From NCBI GenBank assembly GCA_947581825.1, contig CANPVP010000001.1:7606-39605 (forward strand): 32,000 bases of DNA, in the 5' to 3' direction. Under the pieces are notes generated by a model. The model saw only the letters and a list, made by a program, of their open reading frames with translations, was not told the origin of the DNA and did no database searches. A program made the position numbers and the translations under genes. Origin of the DNA: an uncultured Clostridia bacterium. GTDB lineage: Bacteria; Bacillota; Clostridia; TANB77; CAG-508. Numbering within the stretch: position 1 is the first letter of the stretch; every line of letters begins with the position of its first letter. Below are positions 18,089-25,954 of the stretch, in pieces.

Positions 18089-18275
18089 CATATAAAAAAA
18101 ATAGAGCTTTTTGAATTTGAAGGCTAATTATAAGCATACCAGATTTATAAAAAAGATGTAATAAAAAAAGAAAAAATATAATAAGTAATATTAAAATTAG
18201 TTCACGCTAAAGGAATATGAAATTAAATATAGAAATAAATAGTACAAAATAATTTTATAAAAAATTTTCAAAAAA

Positions 18276-18312
18276 TGAAACTTTTTTTGTGTGTAAATAT
18301 ATCTTATAAGTA
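18276..18312 (+). promoter_or_regulatory. ECF-type promoter upstream of the ECF sigma gene (putative autoregulation)
   Basis: TGAAACTTTTTT-N14-TCTTATAAGTA, ~45 nt upstream of the ATG at 18357. It has the same sequence blocks and spacing as 28580-28616. Confidence 0.55.
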
Positions 18313-18356: not shown

Positions 18357-18899
18357 ATGGATAACCTAGTAGAAAAAGCGCAACATGGGGATAAAGAAGC
18401 TTTTACTGAACTTATACTATTATTAAAATCAGAGTTATATAAAATTGCGAAAACAAGGATAAACAATGATGAAGATGTATACGATGTAATACAAGAAACG
18501 ATGATAATTGCATTTAATTCAATAAAAAAATTAAAGCAAATCGAAAAGTTTAAACCATGGATAATAAAGATTTTAATAAATGTAAGTAATAATTTATATA
18601 AAAAAACAAATAAAAGCAATGTTATATCATTAGATAAAATTGAAGGTTATAGTTCCTTAGAGTACTCTGATTTTGATGAGGTTGAAACAATATTGGATTT
18701 CAATTTTATTTTAAATAATTTTAAATATGAAGATAGAATAATCATTATTTTATTCTATGTAGAAAAATTTACTGATAAAGAAATTGGACAAATATTAAAT
18801 TTAAAAGAAAACACTGTCAAGACAAAAAGGACAAGAGTAAAGGAAAAAATTAAAGAAATGATTAAAGGAGGTCAAGAATTTTATGGATCAATTAGATAA
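18357..18899 (+). CDS. ECF-type (group 4) sigma-70 family sigma factor
   Basis: 180 aa from the ATG preceded by GAGGAG. It has region 2 (DVYDVIQETMIIAF, FKPWIIKILIN) and region 4 (FTDKEIGQILNLKENTVKTKRTRVKEKI). The track ORF starts at an upstream TTG. Confidence 0.85.
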   Translation: MDNLVEKAQHGDKEAFTELILLLKSELYKIAKTRINNDEDVYDVIQETMIIAFNSIKKLKQIEKFKPWIIKILINVSNNLYKKTNKSNVISLDKIEGYSSLEYSDFDEVETILDFNFILNNFKYEDRIIIILFYVEKFTDKEIGQILNLKENTVKTKRTRVKEKIKEMIKGGQEFYGSIR

Positions 18900-19995
18900 A
18901 AAATTATATAATGATTTAAATACACAGATAGAAATTCCAGAAAAACTTGATACAATTATAAAAAATGGATTAAATAAAAAGAAATCACCTTATTCATTTC
19001 TTAAATTAATTGCATCAGTTTGTATTATTACATTTATAACTTCAGGAGTAGTTTTAGCAGGGGGAAAAGCAGTTGAAAAAATATGGAAAGAACCACAAAG
19101 AGTAACGATGGATTACAAAGAAAATAATAACAATGATATGACTAAAGAAAATATAATGTCTGAAGAAGAAGCAAGAAAAAAAGGAAAAGAAATATTGGAA
19201 AAATTCGGATATAAAAACGATAAAATAAAAACAATAAAACTTGACAAGAGTCCTGATGATTTTGATGTAGCTTGGTGTATTGAAAGTGAAGATAATATTT
19301 ATATAGATTTTGATGCTAAGGGAGAAGAGTTTTTTTGTATATCAGATGATAATGTATTATATAAGGATATAGAAAAATATAGAACAACAGAAAAAGAAGC
19401 AGAAAAAACTGCTAAGGAACTAGCTAAGAAGTATGGTTATGATACAGAACAGTATAGTTATGCAGAAGTAAGTTCAAACTTAAATTCAGAAAGTGATTCA
19501 TATATTTGGAATGTTACTTTTTATAAGGAATATGATGGAATAAAAAATCCTTATGAAAGTATTCAGGTTACATTTGTTCCAAAAATAAATCAAATATGTG
19601 GATTGAGTGTAGTAAATAAAAAATTTGAAAATAATCCTGTAGAAATTACAAAAGAACAAGCTAAAGAAATTGCTTTAAAAGAAGAACAGAAAATTAATGT
19701 AAAATATGAAGTAAAAAATATAGAAATAAATTTAAGGATAGAATCAATGAATGGATGTGCTTACCTTAGAACAAATGATTATGAACAATTGCATAAGCAA
19801 ACTCCTGCAGACTATCCAAATGAAAAATGGGTATTCTATCGAACAGATTCACGAATTAGAAAGATTTGGTTAGTAACAATAGTATATGATATACCTAACA
19901 AATTTGCGGAAGATTATAATGTGAACGATGAAAGAGTTAGTTATTTTGTAGATGCAACAACAGGAGAAGTAATAGGTGGAGGTAGTATCTTTTAG
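18883..19995 (+). CDS. Putative anti-sigma factor: N-terminal cytoplasmic segment, one TM helix, three PepSY-like extracytoplasmic modules
   Basis: Overlaps the sigma gene stop by 17 nt. TM helix is LKLIASVCIITFITSGVVLAG. Three repeats begin EEEARKKGKEILEKFGY, TEKEAEKTAKELAKKYGY and TKEQAKEIALKEE. Confidence 0.65.
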   Translation: MDQLDKKLYNDLNTQIEIPEKLDTIIKNGLNKKKSPYSFLKLIASVCIITFITSGVVLAGGKAVEKIWKEPQRVTMDYKENNNNDMTKENIMSEEEARKKGKEILEKFGYKNDKIKTIKLDKSPDDFDVAWCIESEDNIYIDFDAKGEEFFCISDDNVLYKDIEKYRTTEKEAEKTAKELAKKYGYDTEQYSYAEVSSNLNSESDSYIWNVTFYKEYDGIKNPYESIQVTFVPKINQICGLSVVNKKFENNPVEITKEQAKEIALKEEQKINVKYEVKNIEINLRIESMNGCAYLRTNDYEQLHKQTPADYPNEKWVFYRTDSRIRKIWLVTIVYDIPNKFAEDYNVNDERVSYFVDATTGEVIGGGSIF

Positions 19996-20192: not shown

Positions 20193-20705
20193 TCAATTGT
20201 TCAAAATATAGCTGTAATCAACATTACAGCTTCTATTCGGAGCATAGTTACCGTTAGCATCCTGAACAATGAAGCGAATTTTTAATTTTTTGCCTTGTAC
20301 AGAACTATAGGTTTGTACACTAACAGAGCCACTTGGACTAGCCTTAGAGACACCAGAAGCATATACTGTACCAGTAGAAGCATCTACAATTTCAACTTTC
20401 AGTTTAGATGAAGAGCTACAAGTGTAAGTTGTTGCAATAGTGAGATATTTGCACTGGCTATTGCTGTCAATAGTCTTAGTCTTGGTCATATTGGAGCCTA
20501 CCATATTAAAGCTACCAACATGACGTTTGGTGTTGCCAGTGTACGTCCATGTTTCCTCACCACCAGACAGAGGCATTACGTCTCCATAAGAGGTGGGCAT
20601 TACGTCACAGTTAAAGATTTCAGTAGCAAAAGCCACCGATGATGAGCAGAGAATCATGACCATAGCCATGAGAACCGGAAGAATCCGCTTGGTAAAATTT
20701 TTCAT
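20193..20705 (-). CDS. Secreted hypothetical protein (beta-rich, Cys-containing), compositionally foreign
   Basis: The ATG at 20705 has an AAAGGAG RBS. Signal peptide MKNFTKRILPVLMAMVMILCSSSVAFA. G+C is visibly higher than in all surrounding DNA. Confidence 0.75.
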   Translation of the reverse strand: MKNFTKRILPVLMAMVMILCSSSVAFATEIFNCDVMPTSYGDVMPLSGGEETWTYTGNTKRHVGSFNMVGSNMTKTKTIDSNSQCKYLTIATTYTCSSSSKLKVEIVDASTGTVYASGVSKASPSGSVSVQTYSSVQGKKLKIRFIVQDANGNYAPNRSCNVDYSYILNN

Positions 20706-20766
20706 TAGAATTACTCCTTTCATAAGCATCTCATCAAGTTTTCAATGCAATAAAATACACAATAAG

Positions 20767-20835
20767 TATATAATAAAAAATAGATATTTATAAATAAAAG
20801 TGGAAAAAAGTGGAAAAAAGGGGAAAAAGGGGAAA
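20767..20835 (-). promoter_or_regulatory. Promoter region with four phased ~10-bp repeats (TTTCCNCTTT type) upstream of the secreted-protein gene
   Basis: The minus strand reads TTTCCCCTTTTTCCCCTTTTTTCCACTTTTTTCCACTTTTATTTA-N18-TATATA. The near-identical layout is found at 29441-29488. Confidence 0.5.
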
Positions 20836-21287
20836 TGCCTAAAAGAAATTTATGTGAAAAATTATAATAATGCGTATAAATAGATTATATATGATATACT
20901 AAAAATGCCAAAAACAGCCTAAAAAACAATTAAAGAAAATTTTGGGACGTGTTTATTGAATTTGATTTAGAAAATATATAAAATATAGGTGTGTATAAAG
21001 ATTATGCTATAGTTTATAAATACTATAACTATCTTCAGTAAAAACTGAAGCATAGCTACTAAAAATTTAGTTAGTAGCAGTTTTTCTACATTTTATATGT
21101 AGCACAAAATGGGAATGCAACTAATAAATATATAGATTATTTATTGTGCTTAAAAATTGAAGAAAGTAAATGTGAGTTAACTCCCCCAACTTACAAATGC
21201 TTTCTCTTTTTTTACCCAAATTTAAAGAAAAGGAGGAGTTAATTAAAAAATCTTTTACACAGAAAGAATGGAAGGAGATTTAAGAAC

Positions 21288-21650
21288 ATGGAAAGTGGTT
21301 TTAGTTTTGAATTATATGAAAGGGTATTTGAAAATTGTTTTATACATAGTTCTTATTACAAAAATGGAAATTTACAACTGAGTTTATTTGGAAATGATTC
21401 AGAAACAAATGAAATAGCACATTTTGCAGATATTACACTAGAACAAAATAAAAAGTTATTAGGAGAAAACGAAATTGTAGTAGATTGTACATATAAACCT
21501 ACACTAATCCCTCAATTACTGGAATTAGGTATTTTGCAAGAACAAACTGGTTTATATGTAGAAGGATTAAATATTTATCCAATCTACAAAGTAGACTTAA
21601 GTAATTTAATACAAAAACAATATGTAATGCAAAAATTAGTTGCTGCATAA
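21288..21650 (+). CDS. DUF4313-like protein (120 aa)
   Basis: GGAAGGAG RBS. The pattern FELYERVFENCFIHSSYYKNGNLQLSLF..EIAHFADITL matches my memory of the DUF4313 family common on conjugative elements. Confidence 0.5.
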   Translation: MESGFSFELYERVFENCFIHSSYYKNGNLQLSLFGNDSETNEIAHFADITLEQNKKLLGENEIVVDCTYKPTLIPQLLELGILQEQTGLYVEGLNIYPIYKVDLSNLIQKQYVMQKLVAA

Positions 21651-21669
21651 GAAGAAAGGAAGGTAAAGA

Positions 21670-22837
21670 ATGGAAAAAACACGATTTGTAAATTTACCAG
21701 TAATTCGGAAGAATCCAACATGGAGAAAGAACTGAGAAAAAAGTAACAGAACTAGGCTATTTTATAGCAAAAGTTGATGATACTTATATGCAAACATACT
21801 TACAAAAATTTGATAAGATATATAAAGGTAAACAATGTATTGACATAGAATTTTTTAATGATGAACCTTTAACGATAAAATATGCAAGATATAATCAAAG
21901 TGGAGAAGTATGCTATTGTATGGCAAATTCAAATACAGCTAATCAAAAAACTAAAAATGGATGGCAATCAGTGCAATGTAATTCTAATTGTCAGTATAGA
22001 CAAAAAAATGAATTTGGAAAATCAGCTTGTAATCGTATAGGCTGGCTTAAATTTTTTATTCCCAGTGTATGCAAAGACAGAATTTTTTTAATGAGAATAA
22101 CAGGTCAAACATCACTTAATAGACTTGATGATTATTTTAATTTACAACGAGTACAGGGAAATACTATAAAAGGGCAATATACTTTATTTCTAAAACAAGA
22201 AGAACAGTCAAATAGTTTAGGCAAAACTTTCAATAATTATGTCTTAGATATTCTGAAAAAAGATGATTTTATTTCTCAAGAATCAATTCCACAAAATAAT
22301 AATAGACCAAAAGAAAATTATATATGTAATGACCAAAATATAAATAAAAAAGTAGTAAATAACGATACTAAAAAAGAAAATATACAATCTACATCAGAAA
22401 ATAATGTAAATCTAGATAATATAGATAATGTAACAACAGAAAAAAATACTAAAAAGGACATTTCTAAGGAAAAAATCCCAAAAGGAACAAAAAGCAAATC
22501 TAAAAAATCTGAAAATACTGAAATAAAGGCAGAAAGTAATTTAAAAGAAAATAAAATAAGTCAAGAAAAATCTTTGGATAATGAAAACTTAGATAATTGT
22601 TATGCTTTACTTAGTACTTTTAACGAAACAATAGCAAATAAAGAATATTTAATAGGTGAATTTACAGATATGAATGACAAAATATGCAATATTGCAATTC
22701 GACCAGAAGATGCGGAAGAACTTGCAAAGTGTGATTTAGGAACATTTGTAAGATTAGATGTGTCAGAAAGAAAGGGAAGAAAATTTGCAATAAAACTTGA
22801 ATTTATCGAAAAAACACAAAAAAAAGTAGTAGCATAA
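21670..22837 (+). pseudogene. Possible phiC31-gp3-like recombination directionality factor with C-terminal extension; 5' end frameshifted
   Basis: The ATG at 21670 gives MEKTRFVNLPVIRKNPTWRKN*. The long ORF (track 21788..22837) is open from 21704 as FGRIQHGERTEKKVTELGYFIAKVDD. Deleting the C at 21706 joins them as ..NLPVIGRIQHGE... The body is Cys-rich, followed by a K/N/E-rich linker and a C-terminal globular part. Confidence 0.45.
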
Positions 22838-22976
22838 TGAGTACTTAGGAAATATTCAAAATACACTACTACTTATATGGCATTGCACCTATGAATTTTC
22901 TATATTATATACAAGTAAATGGATTAAGTCAATAGTAAAAAAATGATAAGTTAAAAAATAAGGAGAAGTATATACC

Positions 22977-23195
22977 ATGAATAATGAATTCAAGAATAGT
23001 ACATTGGTGATTGTATGTGGTCCTGGTGAAAACAATGGAAAAATATATAGAAACGTGCTAGGTATAATTGTTGAAAGAGATCCTTATTACAAAGATTATT
23101 TAGTAAGATTTCAAGACGGAACAGAGGATTGGTTTCTGCCAAGATACATACGAAAACTATGTAAAAGGAAAAAGGAGAAAAGTAATGAAGGTTAA
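22977..23195 (+). CDS. Small hypothetical protein (72 aa)
   Basis: AAGGAGAAG RBS. Overlaps the downstream ATPase gene by 11 nt, suggesting translational coupling. Confidence 0.6.
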   Translation: MNNEFKNSTLVIVCGPGENNGKIYRNVLGIIVERDPYYKDYLVRFQDGTEDWFLPRYIRKLCKRKKEKSNEG

Positions 23196-25023
23196 TTATA
23201 TAAAAACTAAAGGTTTTAGAAAGTTTGAGAAAATATTTGAAACAGAATTATATGATATTACTAATATAACAGGTAAAAACAGAGCTGGGAAAAGTAATGT
23301 ATTATATGCAATTATAAATATAATGCTTGGGACTAATCTATCAGGAGATGAAAAGGCATGTTTAATTAATAAAAATTGTGATTCATCTTATGGAGAAATG
23401 AGATTTACAGACAATAGAGGAATGGAGCATACTTTAATTCGTGTGAAAAATAAATATTCTAATAAAGGAAATATTATCAGCCTAGATGGAAAATCTATTA
23501 CACAAGCTGAATTAACAAGTTTTTATAAGGATAAAAAATTATTTTTATCAGTTGTAAATCCAATATATTTTCTTAACAAAAAAACAGCAGAACAAAAAGA
23601 ATTGGTTGATAAGTATCTGTCGGATATAAAGCCTAAAACAATATTTGATAGACTAACAGAGGATGAACAAAATAAATTAATAGATAAATATTATAAAGAT
23701 ACAGAAAAAACATATAATGAACTCACTTTTAAAGAGCAAGAGAATTTTATAAACTGTAAAATGTTAGATATTTGTATGGACGTTGCTTATAGTAATTTAA
23801 GTAAATCAGAAAAAAATGTATTAGAAGAAATTCCAAAAGATATACCAGTATATATCAGTGAATTAAATGCAGGAATAAAAAGAACAGAGAGTATCATATC
23901 CTCTTTAGATGGTAAAATAGAATATACACAAAGTATCGTAAACGAAGAAATACCTAAATATAAGATTTTCGAAAAGGAAGAGGAACTTTCACTTGCAGAG
24001 CAAGAATTAGCTTACTTGAACAGTAACTATAAAATCGTCGAAAAAGATAATCAAAAGAAAATCGTAGAAGAAATGGAAAGAGATATTTTATTAAAAGAAA
24101 CAGAGTTTTGCGAACTTGAAGACGAAATGAAAAAAGGTAAAAAAATATATCTTTCTATTAAAAATGGAACTTCTTGTACTTGTCCTACATGCAATCAAAA
24201 AATACAAGATGAAAGTAAGAATATAACAATATCAAATATGTACTCTGAATTAGTAGCAAAGTATGATAGAAGAAATTTATTAGAAACACAATTAAAAGAT
24301 TTAAAAATAAAATTATCAGCAGAACGTTGTAAATATCATGCTCTAGAAGGAAATCCAACAGTGGAAAGACAAAAAAGAATTGAGCTTGTTAAGGAGACTA
24401 TAAATAGGTTGGAGCAAGAAAAGCAAGATATTCAAATATTTAATAAGGAGATAAAAATTAAAGAAAAAAATATAAATACAGCAAAAATTGATATAAAAAA
24501 ATTCAATTACGAAAAGCAAGAGAAAACAAAACTTATTAGTAGTTTTAATGATGCCAAAAAAATAGCTCAAAAGTTATATATATCATATATTGAAGAAAAG
24601 ATGAAAATAGCTAAAGAATATTTAAAAAATGTAAATATAAAATTCTATTCCGTACTTAAGACTACAGGAGAAATTAAAGAGGATTTTATAATTACTTATA
24701 AAAATACTCCACTTACAGATTTATCTCGTTCTGAAACTATTGCAACAGCTTTAGAGTTTGCTAATATGTTTAATAAAATTAGCAATGCCAATTTCCCTAT
24801 TTTTATTGATGATTATGAAAGTTGTACAGATTATGACTTTATCAAAGAATATTCTAAAAATACTCAAATTATCGTATCAAAGGTAGAAAAAGGAAGTAAT
24901 CTAAAAATAGCAGATGCAAACAGTCTTAAGCTTAAGATTATTAAAACAGCTATTAAAGGTTATAAAACAGTTAAAACATATAAAAATAATATAAATAATG
25001 TAGCAGAAAAAAAGGCTGCATAA
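23185..25023 (+). CDS. SMC/Rad50/SbcC-like ATPase with central CxxC hook
   Basis: 612 aa with N-terminal Walker A GKNRAGKS and a long coiled coil. SCTCPTCNQ sits near the midpoint. The C-terminus has signature-like LSRSE and Walker B PIFIDDYES. Confidence 0.75.
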   Translation: MKVNYIKTKGFRKFEKIFETELYDITNITGKNRAGKSNVLYAIINIMLGTNLSGDEKACLINKNCDSSYGEMRFTDNRGMEHTLIRVKNKYSNKGNIISLDGKSITQAELTSFYKDKKLFLSVVNPIYFLNKKTAEQKELVDKYLSDIKPKTIFDRLTEDEQNKLIDKYYKDTEKTYNELTFKEQENFINCKMLDICMDVAYSNLSKSEKNVLEEIPKDIPVYISELNAGIKRTESIISSLDGKIEYTQSIVNEEIPKYKIFEKEEELSLAEQELAYLNSNYKIVEKDNQKKIVEEMERDILLKETEFCELEDEMKKGKKIYLSIKNGTSCTCPTCNQKIQDESKNITISNMYSELVAKYDRRNLLETQLKDLKIKLSAERCKYHALEGNPTVERQKRIELVKETINRLEQEKQDIQIFNKEIKIKEKNINTAKIDIKKFNYEKQEKTKLISSFNDAKKIAQKLYISYIEEKMKIAKEYLKNVNIKFYSVLKTTGEIKEDFIITYKNTPLTDLSRSETIATALEFANMFNKISNANFPIFIDDYESCTDYDFIKEYSKNTQIIVSKVEKGSNLKIADANSLKLKIIKTAIKGYKTVKTYKNNINNVAEKKAA

Positions 25024-25029
25024 AGATTA

Positions 25030-25055
25030 AAGGCAGAGAAATCTGTCTTTTTCTT
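25030..25055 (+). terminator. Rho-independent terminator after the ATPase gene
   Basis: Stem AAGGCAGA/TCTGTCTT (one G-U pair), loop GAAA, then TTTCTT. Confidence 0.55.
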
Positions 25056-25082
25056 ACTATAAAAAAAGAGAGGAAAATACAT

Positions 25083-25499
25083 ATGAAAATTAAAGTTTTA
25101 TTAGTTATGCCAGGAAAAGAAGTTCAAATTATAAAAATTCCTGCTAGTATGAAATTTATAAAATCTTTTATTGGAGAGGAGTTATACAGAATAAAATTGA
25201 ATGAAAATAATGTTCTTATAGCAAATTATAATGCTAATATAAATGAGTTTAATAGAATAGTCAAAGGAAATATTATATTAGGAACATTTATAATTGTTTC
25301 AATAAAAAATAAATTTAGAGTCTCAATGAAGAAAAAGGATATTAGAAAGTTTACTAATATGTTTAAGTTAAAAAAACATCAGAAAAAAGTAGAAATCTTC
25401 AAAGAAGAATACTTGGAGGAATACTACTCAAATCAAAAAATAATGAAACAAAAAAATGCTGAAAAAAATAGAAGAGAAATTTTAAACATAGCAGCATAA
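25083..25499 (+). CDS. DUF3846-like protein
   Basis: 138 aa. MKIKVLLVMPGKEVQIIKIP..FIGEE..LIANYNANINEFNR..GTFIIV follows the DUF3846 pattern as I recall it. Confidence 0.55.
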   Translation: MKIKVLLVMPGKEVQIIKIPASMKFIKSFIGEELYRIKLNENNVLIANYNANINEFNRIVKGNIILGTFIIVSIKNKFRVSMKKKDIRKFTNMFKLKKHQKKVEIFKEEYLEEYYSNQKIMKQKNAEKNRREILNIAA

Positions 25500-25516
25500 A
25501 GAAAGGAAGGAAAAAT

Positions 25517-25924
25517 ATGAATAAATGTGTTTTACTAGGAAGACTTACAAAAAATCCAGAAATAAGATATACACAGACTAATAATGTGATGATAGCAAAT
25601 TTTACTCTTGCTGTTAATAGAAATTATGCTAAAGAGGGAGAAGAAAGGCAAACTGATTTTATAAAAATAGTTGCGTATTCAAAAGTTGCAGAATTTGTAA
25701 ATAAGTATGTTGGTAAAGGATTACAAATATGTATTGGTGGTAGAATACAAACTCGTACATATGAGGACAATAACGGAAAAAAACAGTATGTTACTGAAGT
25801 GATTGCTGAAGAAGTGAATTTTGCAGATAGTCCGAAAAAAGCAGATAAAAATATATTATGGACTAATAACAATAGTGAAAATGGAGAAGAATCAACAATA
25901 GAAGATGACGATTTACCATTTTAA
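25517..25924 (+). CDS. ssb: Single-stranded DNA-binding protein
   Basis: 135 aa with the OB-fold start MNKCVLLGRLTKNPEIRYT and an acidic C-terminal tail ending DDDLPF. Confidence 0.92.
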   Translation: MNKCVLLGRLTKNPEIRYTQTNNVMIANFTLAVNRNYAKEGEERQTDFIKIVAYSKVAEFVNKYVGKGLQICIGGRIQTRTYEDNNGKKQYVTEVIAEEVNFADSPKKADKNILWTNNNSENGEESTIEDDDLPF

Positions 25925-25954
25925 ACGAAAAAAGATGAAAGGAAGAATAAATCT

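Follow-up and report, generated by a model that had tools for sequence, protein, structure and literature searches.

Few bacterial regulators have been studied as closely as Spo0A, whose DNA-binding domain is usually regarded as specific to the control of sporulation. The DNA-binding domains of Spo0A bind tandem boxes 10 bp apart (PDB 1LQ1). Among the ECF sigma factors, which usually transcribe their own operon, TGAAAC is the classic -35 sequence. In the 0A box (TGTCGAA) Spo0A makes base contacts to G2, C4 and G5, T3 being without a base-specific contact, and single changes at position 4 lower the affinity about 10-fold (PMC3485338). The DNA-contacting residues are conserved in true Spo0A proteins (PMC3485338). 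0A boxes upstream of or at the -35 are associated in the literature with activation, and one preprint describes duplicated spo0A genes in some Clostridiales. No literature on mobile-element Spo0A paralogues or their operators was found.

The locus described here lies in a 32-kb stretch of DNA, the whole of which is referred to as the window (G+C about 25%). It combines a gene for a Spo0A-like response regulator with an ECF sigma/anti-sigma pair and two arrays of phased repeats. The first-pass annotation had put the arrays forward as binding sites of an activator, with the Spo0A-like protein as the candidate. The conservation of the arrays in related loci and their co-occurrence with the regulator gene support this proposal, and the arrays are regarded here as putative activator sites of the adjacent regulator.

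The element and its Spo0A-like regulator

The first 11 kb of the window are chromosomal, with an AIR-synthase-like gene, two tRNAs, an NFACT/RqcH-like gene and a CvpA-like gene. To their right, from about 11.9 kb, come large serine recombinase genes, small regulators and then the ECF sigma/anti-sigma pair. Two large serine recombinase genes adjoin each other (13757-14836 and 11895-13466, both on the minus strand); the upstream gene begins at MVITKDLSRLGRDY, is apparently without the N-terminal catalytic part and may be truncated or split. The features considered below are the following.

18357-18899, plus strand: ECF sigma factor gene (180 aa; start as in the gene call of the related locus L310)
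18883-19995, plus strand: putative membrane anti-sigma gene (370 aa; overlaps the end of the sigma gene; hydrophobic stretch at about residues 38-60)
20193-20705, minus strand: secreted-protein gene (170 aa, with signal peptide)
20706-20762, minus strand: leader of the secreted-protein gene, holding the block CATTGAAAACTTGATGAGATG
28706-29431, plus strand: orphan response regulator gene (241 aa; receiver domain and Spo0A_C DNA-binding domain)
29520-31952, plus strand: two FtsX-type permease genes (406 and 401 aa; FtsX domain match in the first only)

The unit of secreted gene and array is parted from the regulator gene by about 7.2 kb (21288-28440) that contain an RDF-like gene, an AAA ATPase, DUF3846, SSB, PcfK and PcfJ; in the related loci L087, L097, L099, L307 and L309 the two are adjacent and divergent. 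The full element extends beyond the window. In the gene list of L310 an ABC ATPase (228 aa) and a 126-aa gene come after the FtsX genes, and on this longer contig the FtsX/ABC operon is followed by genes for T4SS coupling proteins, so that the element is an integrative conjugative element. Megablast of 16-32 kb of the window against phage and plasmid collections gave no matches.

The regulator scores above the Pfam cut-offs for both Response_reg (58.9 bits) and Spo0A_C (36.2 bits). Compared with the PDB, the family profile has the Spo0A receiver (9phz, 1dz3) as its best match and the Spo0A DNA-binding domain (1lq1, 1fc3; E about 1e-7) as its second. Against the Spo0A equivalog TIGR02875, which has a cut-off of 200, the score is 78.5 bits with residues 4-187 aligned. 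The receiver residues Asp9/10, Asp56 (the acceptor) and Lys106 are retained. The stretch of the regulator aligned after GYKYLIECI...LFPCVAEKL is QTIKWTLRKFIISMIRY. In the recognition-helix region the family reads (Q/K)(T/N)IKW(T/N)LRK, and Spo0A has SRVERAIRHAIEVAW at the aligned place, with SRVERAIRH where the regulator in the window has QTIKWTLRK. The signature SRVERAIRHAIEVAW, with all contact residues kept, is not found in the regulator family. Judged by these alignments the regulator is a divergent paralogue of Spo0A whose recognition helix is different, in keeping with the altered 0A box described below.

The close regulator family comprises 17 clusters at 90% identity. In an exhaustive profile search clustered at 50% identity, 58 family clusters fell below E 1e-30 and many others scored more weakly; by E 1e-20 there were more than 100 full-length proteins of about 240 aa. 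With an alignment of 12 regulator sequences the matches in genome contigs were mostly unrelated receiver domains, the useful loci being L007-L010 and L036, and an alignment of 17 sequences gave only receiver-domain noise in viral contigs. The loci examined showed no gene for a cognate kinase. At one locus (L314, 2620-2979, minus strand) a 119-aa protein with a Spo0A_C domain only adjoins a family regulator gene and a Peptidase_M23 gene.

Repeat arrays and candidate core promoters in the window

Exact matches to TTTCCNCTTTT number six on the two strands of the 32 kb, and all of them fall within the two loci where a common repeat unit had been noted. In shuffled sequence the mean is 0.37 and the maximum two, and none of 100 shuffles has six. 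The arrays and the candidate promoters that adjoin them are located as follows.

20796-20835, minus strand: array 1, four tandem units toward the secreted-protein gene (TTTCCCC, TTTCCCC, TTTCCAC, TTTCCAC, with a T-run after each)
20765-20795, minus strand: candidate core promoter 1, adjoining array 1 (weak -35 TTTATA at 20794-20789; -10 TATATA/TATACT at 20772-20765)
29441-29461, plus strand: array 2, two TTTCCTC units with a T-run after each, beginning 10 nt past the regulator stop codon
29463-29490, plus strand: candidate core promoter 2, adjoining array 2 (TTTAAA-16-TATAAT)

Read on the gene strand, the TTTCCNCTTTT matches start at 20835, 20826, 20816 and 20806 in array 1 (periods 9, 10 and 10) and at 29441 and 29451 in array 2 (period 10). 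The tandem phasing of about 10 bp proposed earlier is thereby retained, with a period of 9-10 bp rather than strictly 10. Toward the gene, locus 1 (20835-20767, minus strand) is composed of TTTCCCCTT TTTCCCCTTT TTTCCACTTT TTTCCACTTTT ATTTA-N18-TATATA and locus 2 (29441-29490, plus strand) of TTTCCTCTTT TTTCCTCTTTT ATTTA-N18-TATAAT. The distance from the C of the last unit to the -10 is 28 nt at both loci, with TATATA at 20772-20767 or TATAAT at 29485-29490. The spacings of N18 and N16 that had been given for the two loci result from placing TATATA at both; TATAAT at 29485-29490 is the better -10, and the spacing is then equal.

The repeats had also been described as taking the place of the -35 element. 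A scan for consensus promoters returned TTTATA-18-TATACT at 20794..20765 (minus strand) and TTTAAA-16-TATAAT at 29463..29490 (plus strand), and the arrays abut the -35 position, a weak -35 being found at both loci. The shared block CTTTTATTTA is present at both loci as claimed, but it is not significant alone (two found, 1.77 expected); it consists of the T-run of the last unit and the weak -35 region. Array, -35 and -10 have a common layout at the two loci. This layout has the sequence features of an activator-dependent sigma-A promoter, in which sites in helical phase abut a poor -35 and a recognisable -10 is present. It also has the phased tracts of an A-tract element, with runs of T4-T7 every 9-10 bp upstream of the -35. 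The arrays are without the TGAAAC-N20-TCT motif of an ECF promoter.

About 50 nt upstream of array 1 there is a near-consensus sigma-A promoter (TTGGCA-16-TATAAT, 20911..20884, minus strand, 11/12 matches) aimed through the array at the secreted-protein gene, which it could drive independently. It is without counterpart in the compact elements, where the regulator promoter occupies that position.

Four other roles for the arrays were considered and rejected. A scan for promoters and terminators gave no terminator-like site between the regulator gene and the FtsX gene, and the stem of a regulator-gene terminator was not found in array 2. A role as ribosome-binding sites of the opposite strand was discarded, with no conserved coding on that strand, and one as iterons or oriT likewise, the Mob gene of L087 not being nearby. 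The likeness to PhoP-type TTHACA boxes is confined to the TACAC variants, and the period is wrong.

Arrays and candidate ECF-type promoters in related loci

The comparison covers motifs, positions, conservation and gene co-occurrence, all of which were observed directly. All relatives of the regulator with usable flanks have similar arrays beside the regulator gene, with 1-4 units and a period of 9-10 bp. The genes that follow the arrays include at least seven unrelated secreted or export genes, and where such unrelated genes follow, the regulators are 28-89% identical to that of the window.

The closest parallel to the secreted-gene locus is a small integrative mobilisable element (L087-L092) with a 62% identical regulator. 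In L087 the gene order is ECF sigma, anti-sigma, a 179-aa secreted homologue (minus strand) and regulator (plus strand), and this four-gene module is found also in L097/L098, L099, L307 and L309. The arrays before the secreted gene are the following.

L087: TTTACAC, two units
L097: TTTCCAC, four units
L099: three units
L307: TCCAC and TACAC
L309: ATTCAC and three TCCAC units

Across the six orthologous secreted-gene promoters, with regulators 60-100% identical, 2-4 units are kept and the flanks have diverged. Comparison of homologous elements had been suggested as a check of the repeats, and it showed the arrays kept in position and architecture at 6/6 of these promoters. The orthologous arrays are directly followed by TTGTAT, TTGCAT or TTGATA, then by 17 nt, by (TG)nTATCTT or TATTTT, and by a nearly invariant leader. 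Candidate core promoter 1 of the window aligns with this TTGTAT/TTGCAT/TTGATA-N17-(TG)nTATCTT arrangement. The leader block CATTGAAAACTTGATGAGATG is almost invariant in the six elements, the coding regions being about 55-60% identical. The RNA fold of the leader is not significant (z = -0.18), no Rfam family was found in the region, and the leader 16-mer CATTGAAAACTTGATG gave only chance matches, without homology to the locus, in viral and metagenome contigs. The 170-aa secreted protein has no Pfam or other family assignment. It is predicted by AlphaFold2 (mean pLDDT 80, core above 90) to form a beta-sandwich of about 120 residues, for which a structure search returned weak matches of CBM- or tail-fibre-like type only and no specific function.

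Arrays beside the regulator gene are also found where the downstream gene is of another kind. Array 2 is identical in L310 and in L305 (89% identical regulator), and L305 has a second array on the other strand that faces a gene for a different signal-peptide protein. In L093 (71%) three units (ACTC, TCCAC and TGCAC) past the stop codon precede a 139-aa gene and ABC/FtsX genes, and in L311 a 3' remnant of the regulator gene is followed by CCTC and CCAC units and a zincin-like gene. Among the more distant relatives, L008 (38%) has CCAT, CTATC and CTAC at 10-bp spacing followed by TTTATT-17-TATAAT and a PG_binding/Rv2525c-like gene, and L313 (37%) has three to five units before a Peptidase_M10-like gene, with a sigma pair present. 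L316/L317 (33%) have two separate arrays with TTGGAA after each. In L036 (32%) two TGTAAC units lie 28 nt before TGGTAAAAT and the gene of a 161-aa secreted protein, with a sigma/anti-sigma pair nearby, and in L315 (28%) three ATAACAAAAT repeats are placed ahead of a sigma/anti-sigma/regulator operon. The products of the other genes preceded by arrays are signal-peptide proteins, zincin-like peptidases, a cell-wall hydrolase-like protein and FtsX/ABC exporters; exported proteins are their common theme.

A strict scan (unit CNCTTTT at 9-11 bp spacing) of both strands of 317 kb of family loci gave 10 arrays, eight of them at predicted places and the other two being two-unit matches inside genes. 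Neither this unit nor the variant unit of the distant subfamily gave arrays in a background of 640 kb of unrelated DNA with G+C below 35%. No arrays were found in the chromosomal flanks of the family loci. A relaxed unit ([ACT][ACT][CT]TTTT) was dropped as too permissive, with 138 background arrays.

The arrays are not uniform. L311 (10726-10805) and L312 have an identical regulator and operon, but the spacer is exactly 10 bp shorter and has one unit mutated to TTCTTCT, indicating a recent gain or loss of a unit. Since this near-identical element keeps its genes with a single mutated unit, two units are dispensable for retention of the locus. L007 is a decayed copy without an array, and the distance between the final unit and the best -10 differs by 2-3 nt from locus to locus. 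Two further sites were seen in distant relatives. In L036 (4475-4510) four phased CATTTTT units, which are A-tracts when read on the minus strand, precede a perfect TTGACT-17-TATAAT (minus strand) by about 40 nt; they are either curved DNA of a generic kind or a site of the regulator in reverse orientation. In L010 (660-700; 30% identical) the spacer of the regulator promoter (TTTACA-17-TAAAAT) includes CCACTTTTTCC on the opposite strand, which could be an autorepression site or chance.

A consensus derived from 32 units in 12 arrays gives the heptamer TTCCACT, with C in 31/32 units at u6 and in 27/32 at u4, a variable u5, and the T-run as the best-conserved part of the unit. TTCCACT agrees with the reverse complement of the 0A box, TTCGACA, at 5/7 positions. 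In this correspondence u6 equals the contacted G2, u3 equals G5, and the variable u5 (an N in the first-pass annotation) equals T3, while u4 equals C4 and has the opposite base. The complement of the unit, AGTGGAA, accordingly keeps G2 and G5 and departs from the 0A-box core by a G at position 4, a substitution found in all units of the close subfamily. The head-to-tail arrangement of tandem 0A boxes about 10 bp apart is reproduced, with periods of 9-10 bp in all arrays. Such a pattern would be expected from the reading of a paralogue with a changed recognition helix; it is a resemblance, not proof. Within the close subfamily the bases of the unit show no clear one-to-one covariation with residues of the recognition helix, and in L307 TACAC and TCCAC units occur in one array.

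The ECF sigma factor scores 72 bits against TIGR02937 (cut-off 42.9), and SigV, SigY and SigW are the nearest named families. The sigma/anti-sigma pair is conserved in L087, L097, L099, L307 and L309; the anti-sigma counterpart in L036 has a weak DUF4179 match. The window has exactly two copies of ATGAAACTTTTT, against 0.05 expected, one preceding the sigma operon (18275) and the other the regulator gene (28579); both sites have TCT(T/A)(A/T)ATA 20 nt downstream.

18275-18310, plus strand: ECF-type promoter candidate of the sigma operon (ATGAAAC-N20-TCTTATAAG)
28579-28614, plus strand: ECF-type promoter candidate of the regulator gene (ATGAAAC-N20-TCTATATAG)

In L087, L097, L099 and L309 both the sigma and the regulator genes are preceded by ATGAAACTTTTT, with TCTTATA or C(T/A)CTATATA 20 nt downstream of it. 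The motif occurs as well in L007 and L036; in L307 and L093 it precedes the regulator gene, and in L305 its spacer is shortened. The L305 promoter (639-665) has 7 nt between TGAAAC and CTCTATATAT, compared with about 20 elsewhere; the cause is either an error of assembly or a deletion, which should inactivate the promoter. The ATGAAACTTTTT motif is probably the promoter type of the ECF sigma factor itself. Given that TGAAAC is an ECF -35 and that autoregulation is usual in these factors, the ECF sigma factor would transcribe both its own operon and the regulator gene. Since the sigma factor has a separate motif, the regulator is the better candidate for the arrays. The compact elements have the array back to back with the regulator promoter, at a distance of about 20 bp in L097, which makes autoregulation of the regulator possible there.

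A proposed cascade, its alternatives and known systems

The preferred reading, which is considered fairly probable, is that the arrays are operators of the element's Spo0A paralogue and activate sigma-A-type promoters, and that the paralogue is itself under an ECF-type promoter, giving a cascade to the cargo. Each unit (TTCCACT and its T-run) would be an altered 0A box in reverse orientation, and the head-to-tail units every 9-10 bp would provide the spacing of tandem-box binding by Spo0A DNA-binding domains. The promoter-proximal unit, centred at about -43, would end just upstream of the weak -35, with the others at about -53, -63 and -72. The regulator bound to the array would recruit or stabilise sigma-A RNA polymerase and so turn on the gene of the secreted beta-sandwich protein and the FtsX/ABC exporter operon. 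The regulator gene would be transcribed from the ECF-type promoter TGAAAC-N20-TCTaTAtA, a type common to the sigma/anti-sigma operon. The cascade would accordingly run from an envelope signal through release of the anti-sigma factor to the ECF sigma factor, the regulator, the arrays and the exported cargo. In this scheme it is the binding, its activating and not repressing effect, the sigma assignments and a possible need for phosphorylation that we infer.

The scheme is favoured because the motif is non-random and confined to two promoter regions of the window, and the regulator is favoured as the binder because arrays stand before non-homologous genes beside a regulator gene or its remnant. 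The position of array 2, where the Spo0A-like gene ends (29431) 10 nt before the array begins (29441), is as first reported. The scheme is weakened by the conservation of the T-run above all other parts of the unit, such that phased T-tracts alone could stimulate a promoter, and by the mutated unit in L311/L312, the drift of the period between 9 and 10 bp, the variable spacing to the -10 and the lack of clear covariation. The co-occurrence of the ECF sigma pair with most secreted-gene arrays and the strong promoter at 20911..20884 upstream of array 1 weaken it as well.

An explanation by DNA shape takes the phased A-tracts upstream of the Clostridium perfringens plc promoter as its model. The arrays would then be phased T-tracts, that is curved or UP-element-like DNA, acting through their shape or the alpha subunit of RNA polymerase without a specific regulator, and the result would be ordinary. 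Runs of T4-T7 every 9-10 bp directly upstream of the -35 are what such an element requires, the four CATTTTT units of L036 show that tracts of this kind exist in these genomes, and the one-unit variant in L311/L312 is tolerated. Curvature alone does not, however, need the bases between the T-runs, which are conserved across unrelated promoters (u6 in 31/32 and u4 in 27/32 units). The T-run is moreover always on the sense strand, and the arrays are tied to the regulator gene and absent from both the 640 kb of AT-rich background and the chromosomal flanks, so that this explanation is judged unlikely. Still more improbable, to the point of being nearly dismissed, is that the tracts are functionless low-complexity polypyrimidine DNA or products of slippage and that the likeness of the two loci is due to chance. 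AT-rich DNA of about 25% G+C, a copy number of 1 to 4 that is consistent with slippage, and a shared 10-mer (CTTTTATTTA) that is not significant alone could all be accounted for in this way. The failure of all 100 shuffles to give six matches could not, nor could the retention of position and orientation relative to promoters down to about 30% regulator identity and across unrelated downstream genes.

Binding of the arrays by another protein is also improbable, to about the same degree as curvature; the candidates are host Spo0A using the units as weak 0A boxes, another host factor, or the ECF sigma factor with the unit as its -35. Binding by host Spo0A would tie the cargo to sporulation or stationary phase. 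It is consistent with the match of the unit to the 0A box at 5/7 positions, including the contacted G2 and G5, and, to go by the title of a cited paper, Spo0A-activated promoters with weak boxes are known. The G in place of the contacted C4 in all close-subfamily units looks systematic, however, rather than like random degeneracy. The ECF sigma factor is suggested by the sigma/anti-sigma pair that accompanies most secreted-gene arrays, but it has a motif of its own (TGAAAC-N20-TCT) that is absent from the arrays. The units are also without an AAC/CGT pattern, tandem copies are not expected of a -35, and arrays are found beside the regulator gene where no sigma gene was seen (L093, L305 and L008).

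The reading preferred here, of the arrays as operators of the Spo0A paralogue, would extend to a portable three-tier cassette of clostridial integrative elements, a generalisation that is tentative and carries distinctly more doubt than the reading itself. In such a cassette the anti-sigma/ECF sigma pair would control an orphan Spo0A paralogue with its own variant 0A box, which in turn would control secreted enzymes, other secreted proteins and exporters through tandem-box promoters. The paralogue may be phosphorylated by host sporulation kinases, as suggested by the Spo0A-type receiver that is kept and by the lack of a kinase gene in the loci seen. If this is true, expression of the cargo would be an AND gate of an envelope signal and the host signals that activate Spo0A, and Spo0A_C would be a family of DNA-binding domains with several specificities, not a domain of a single regulator.

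The loci point to a group of short Spo0A paralogues carried by integrative and mobilisable elements of gut Clostridia. Each adjoins predictable, putative operator arrays and, in most loci examined, an ECF sigma pair. The proposed pair of operator and regulator is directly testable, with a natural series of box variants. It offers a route to the signals behind the expression of secreted proteins, peptidases, cell-wall enzymes and exporters by mobile elements, and the compact parts (sigma, anti-sigma, regulator and operator) could serve as clostridial genetic tools.

Compared with known systems, the likeness to Spo0A is in the architecture of receiver and Spo0A_C domain, both of which match Spo0A structures best, and in the unit, which agrees with the 7-bp 0A box at 5/7 positions, has A/T flanks and is repeated in tandem at about 10 bp. 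The regulator differs from Spo0A in its length (about 240 aa compared with about 270), in the altered recognition helix, in a score far below the equivalog threshold and in its location on mobile elements beside an ECF sigma pair. The unit differs from the 0A box in having G, not C, at the contacted position 4, and the putative targets are genes for secreted proteins and exporters, not sporulation genes. The pho boxes of PhoB/PhoP and the OmpR sites share with the arrays head-to-tail repeats about one helical turn apart that abut or overlap a weak -35 combined with a good -10. Those regulators are winged-helix proteins with an 11-bp period, whereas here the domain is Spo0A_C, the period is 9-10 bp, up to four units are present and no kinase gene was seen. 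With the A-tracts of C. perfringens plc the arrays share A/T runs that keep helical phase and lie just upstream of the -35, in a clostridial genome that is AT-rich; they differ in the conserved bases between the tracts and in travelling with a specific regulator gene. The autoregulated modules of SigW/SigV type resemble the locus in the overlapping membrane anti-sigma gene and in the TGAAAC motif before their own operon and one extra target, a likeness that concerns the ATGAAACTTTTT motif and not the arrays. The -10 part differs, being TCTaTAtA without the usual CGT, and the extra target here is a Spo0A-like regulator, which would turn the module into a sigma-to-regulator cascade.
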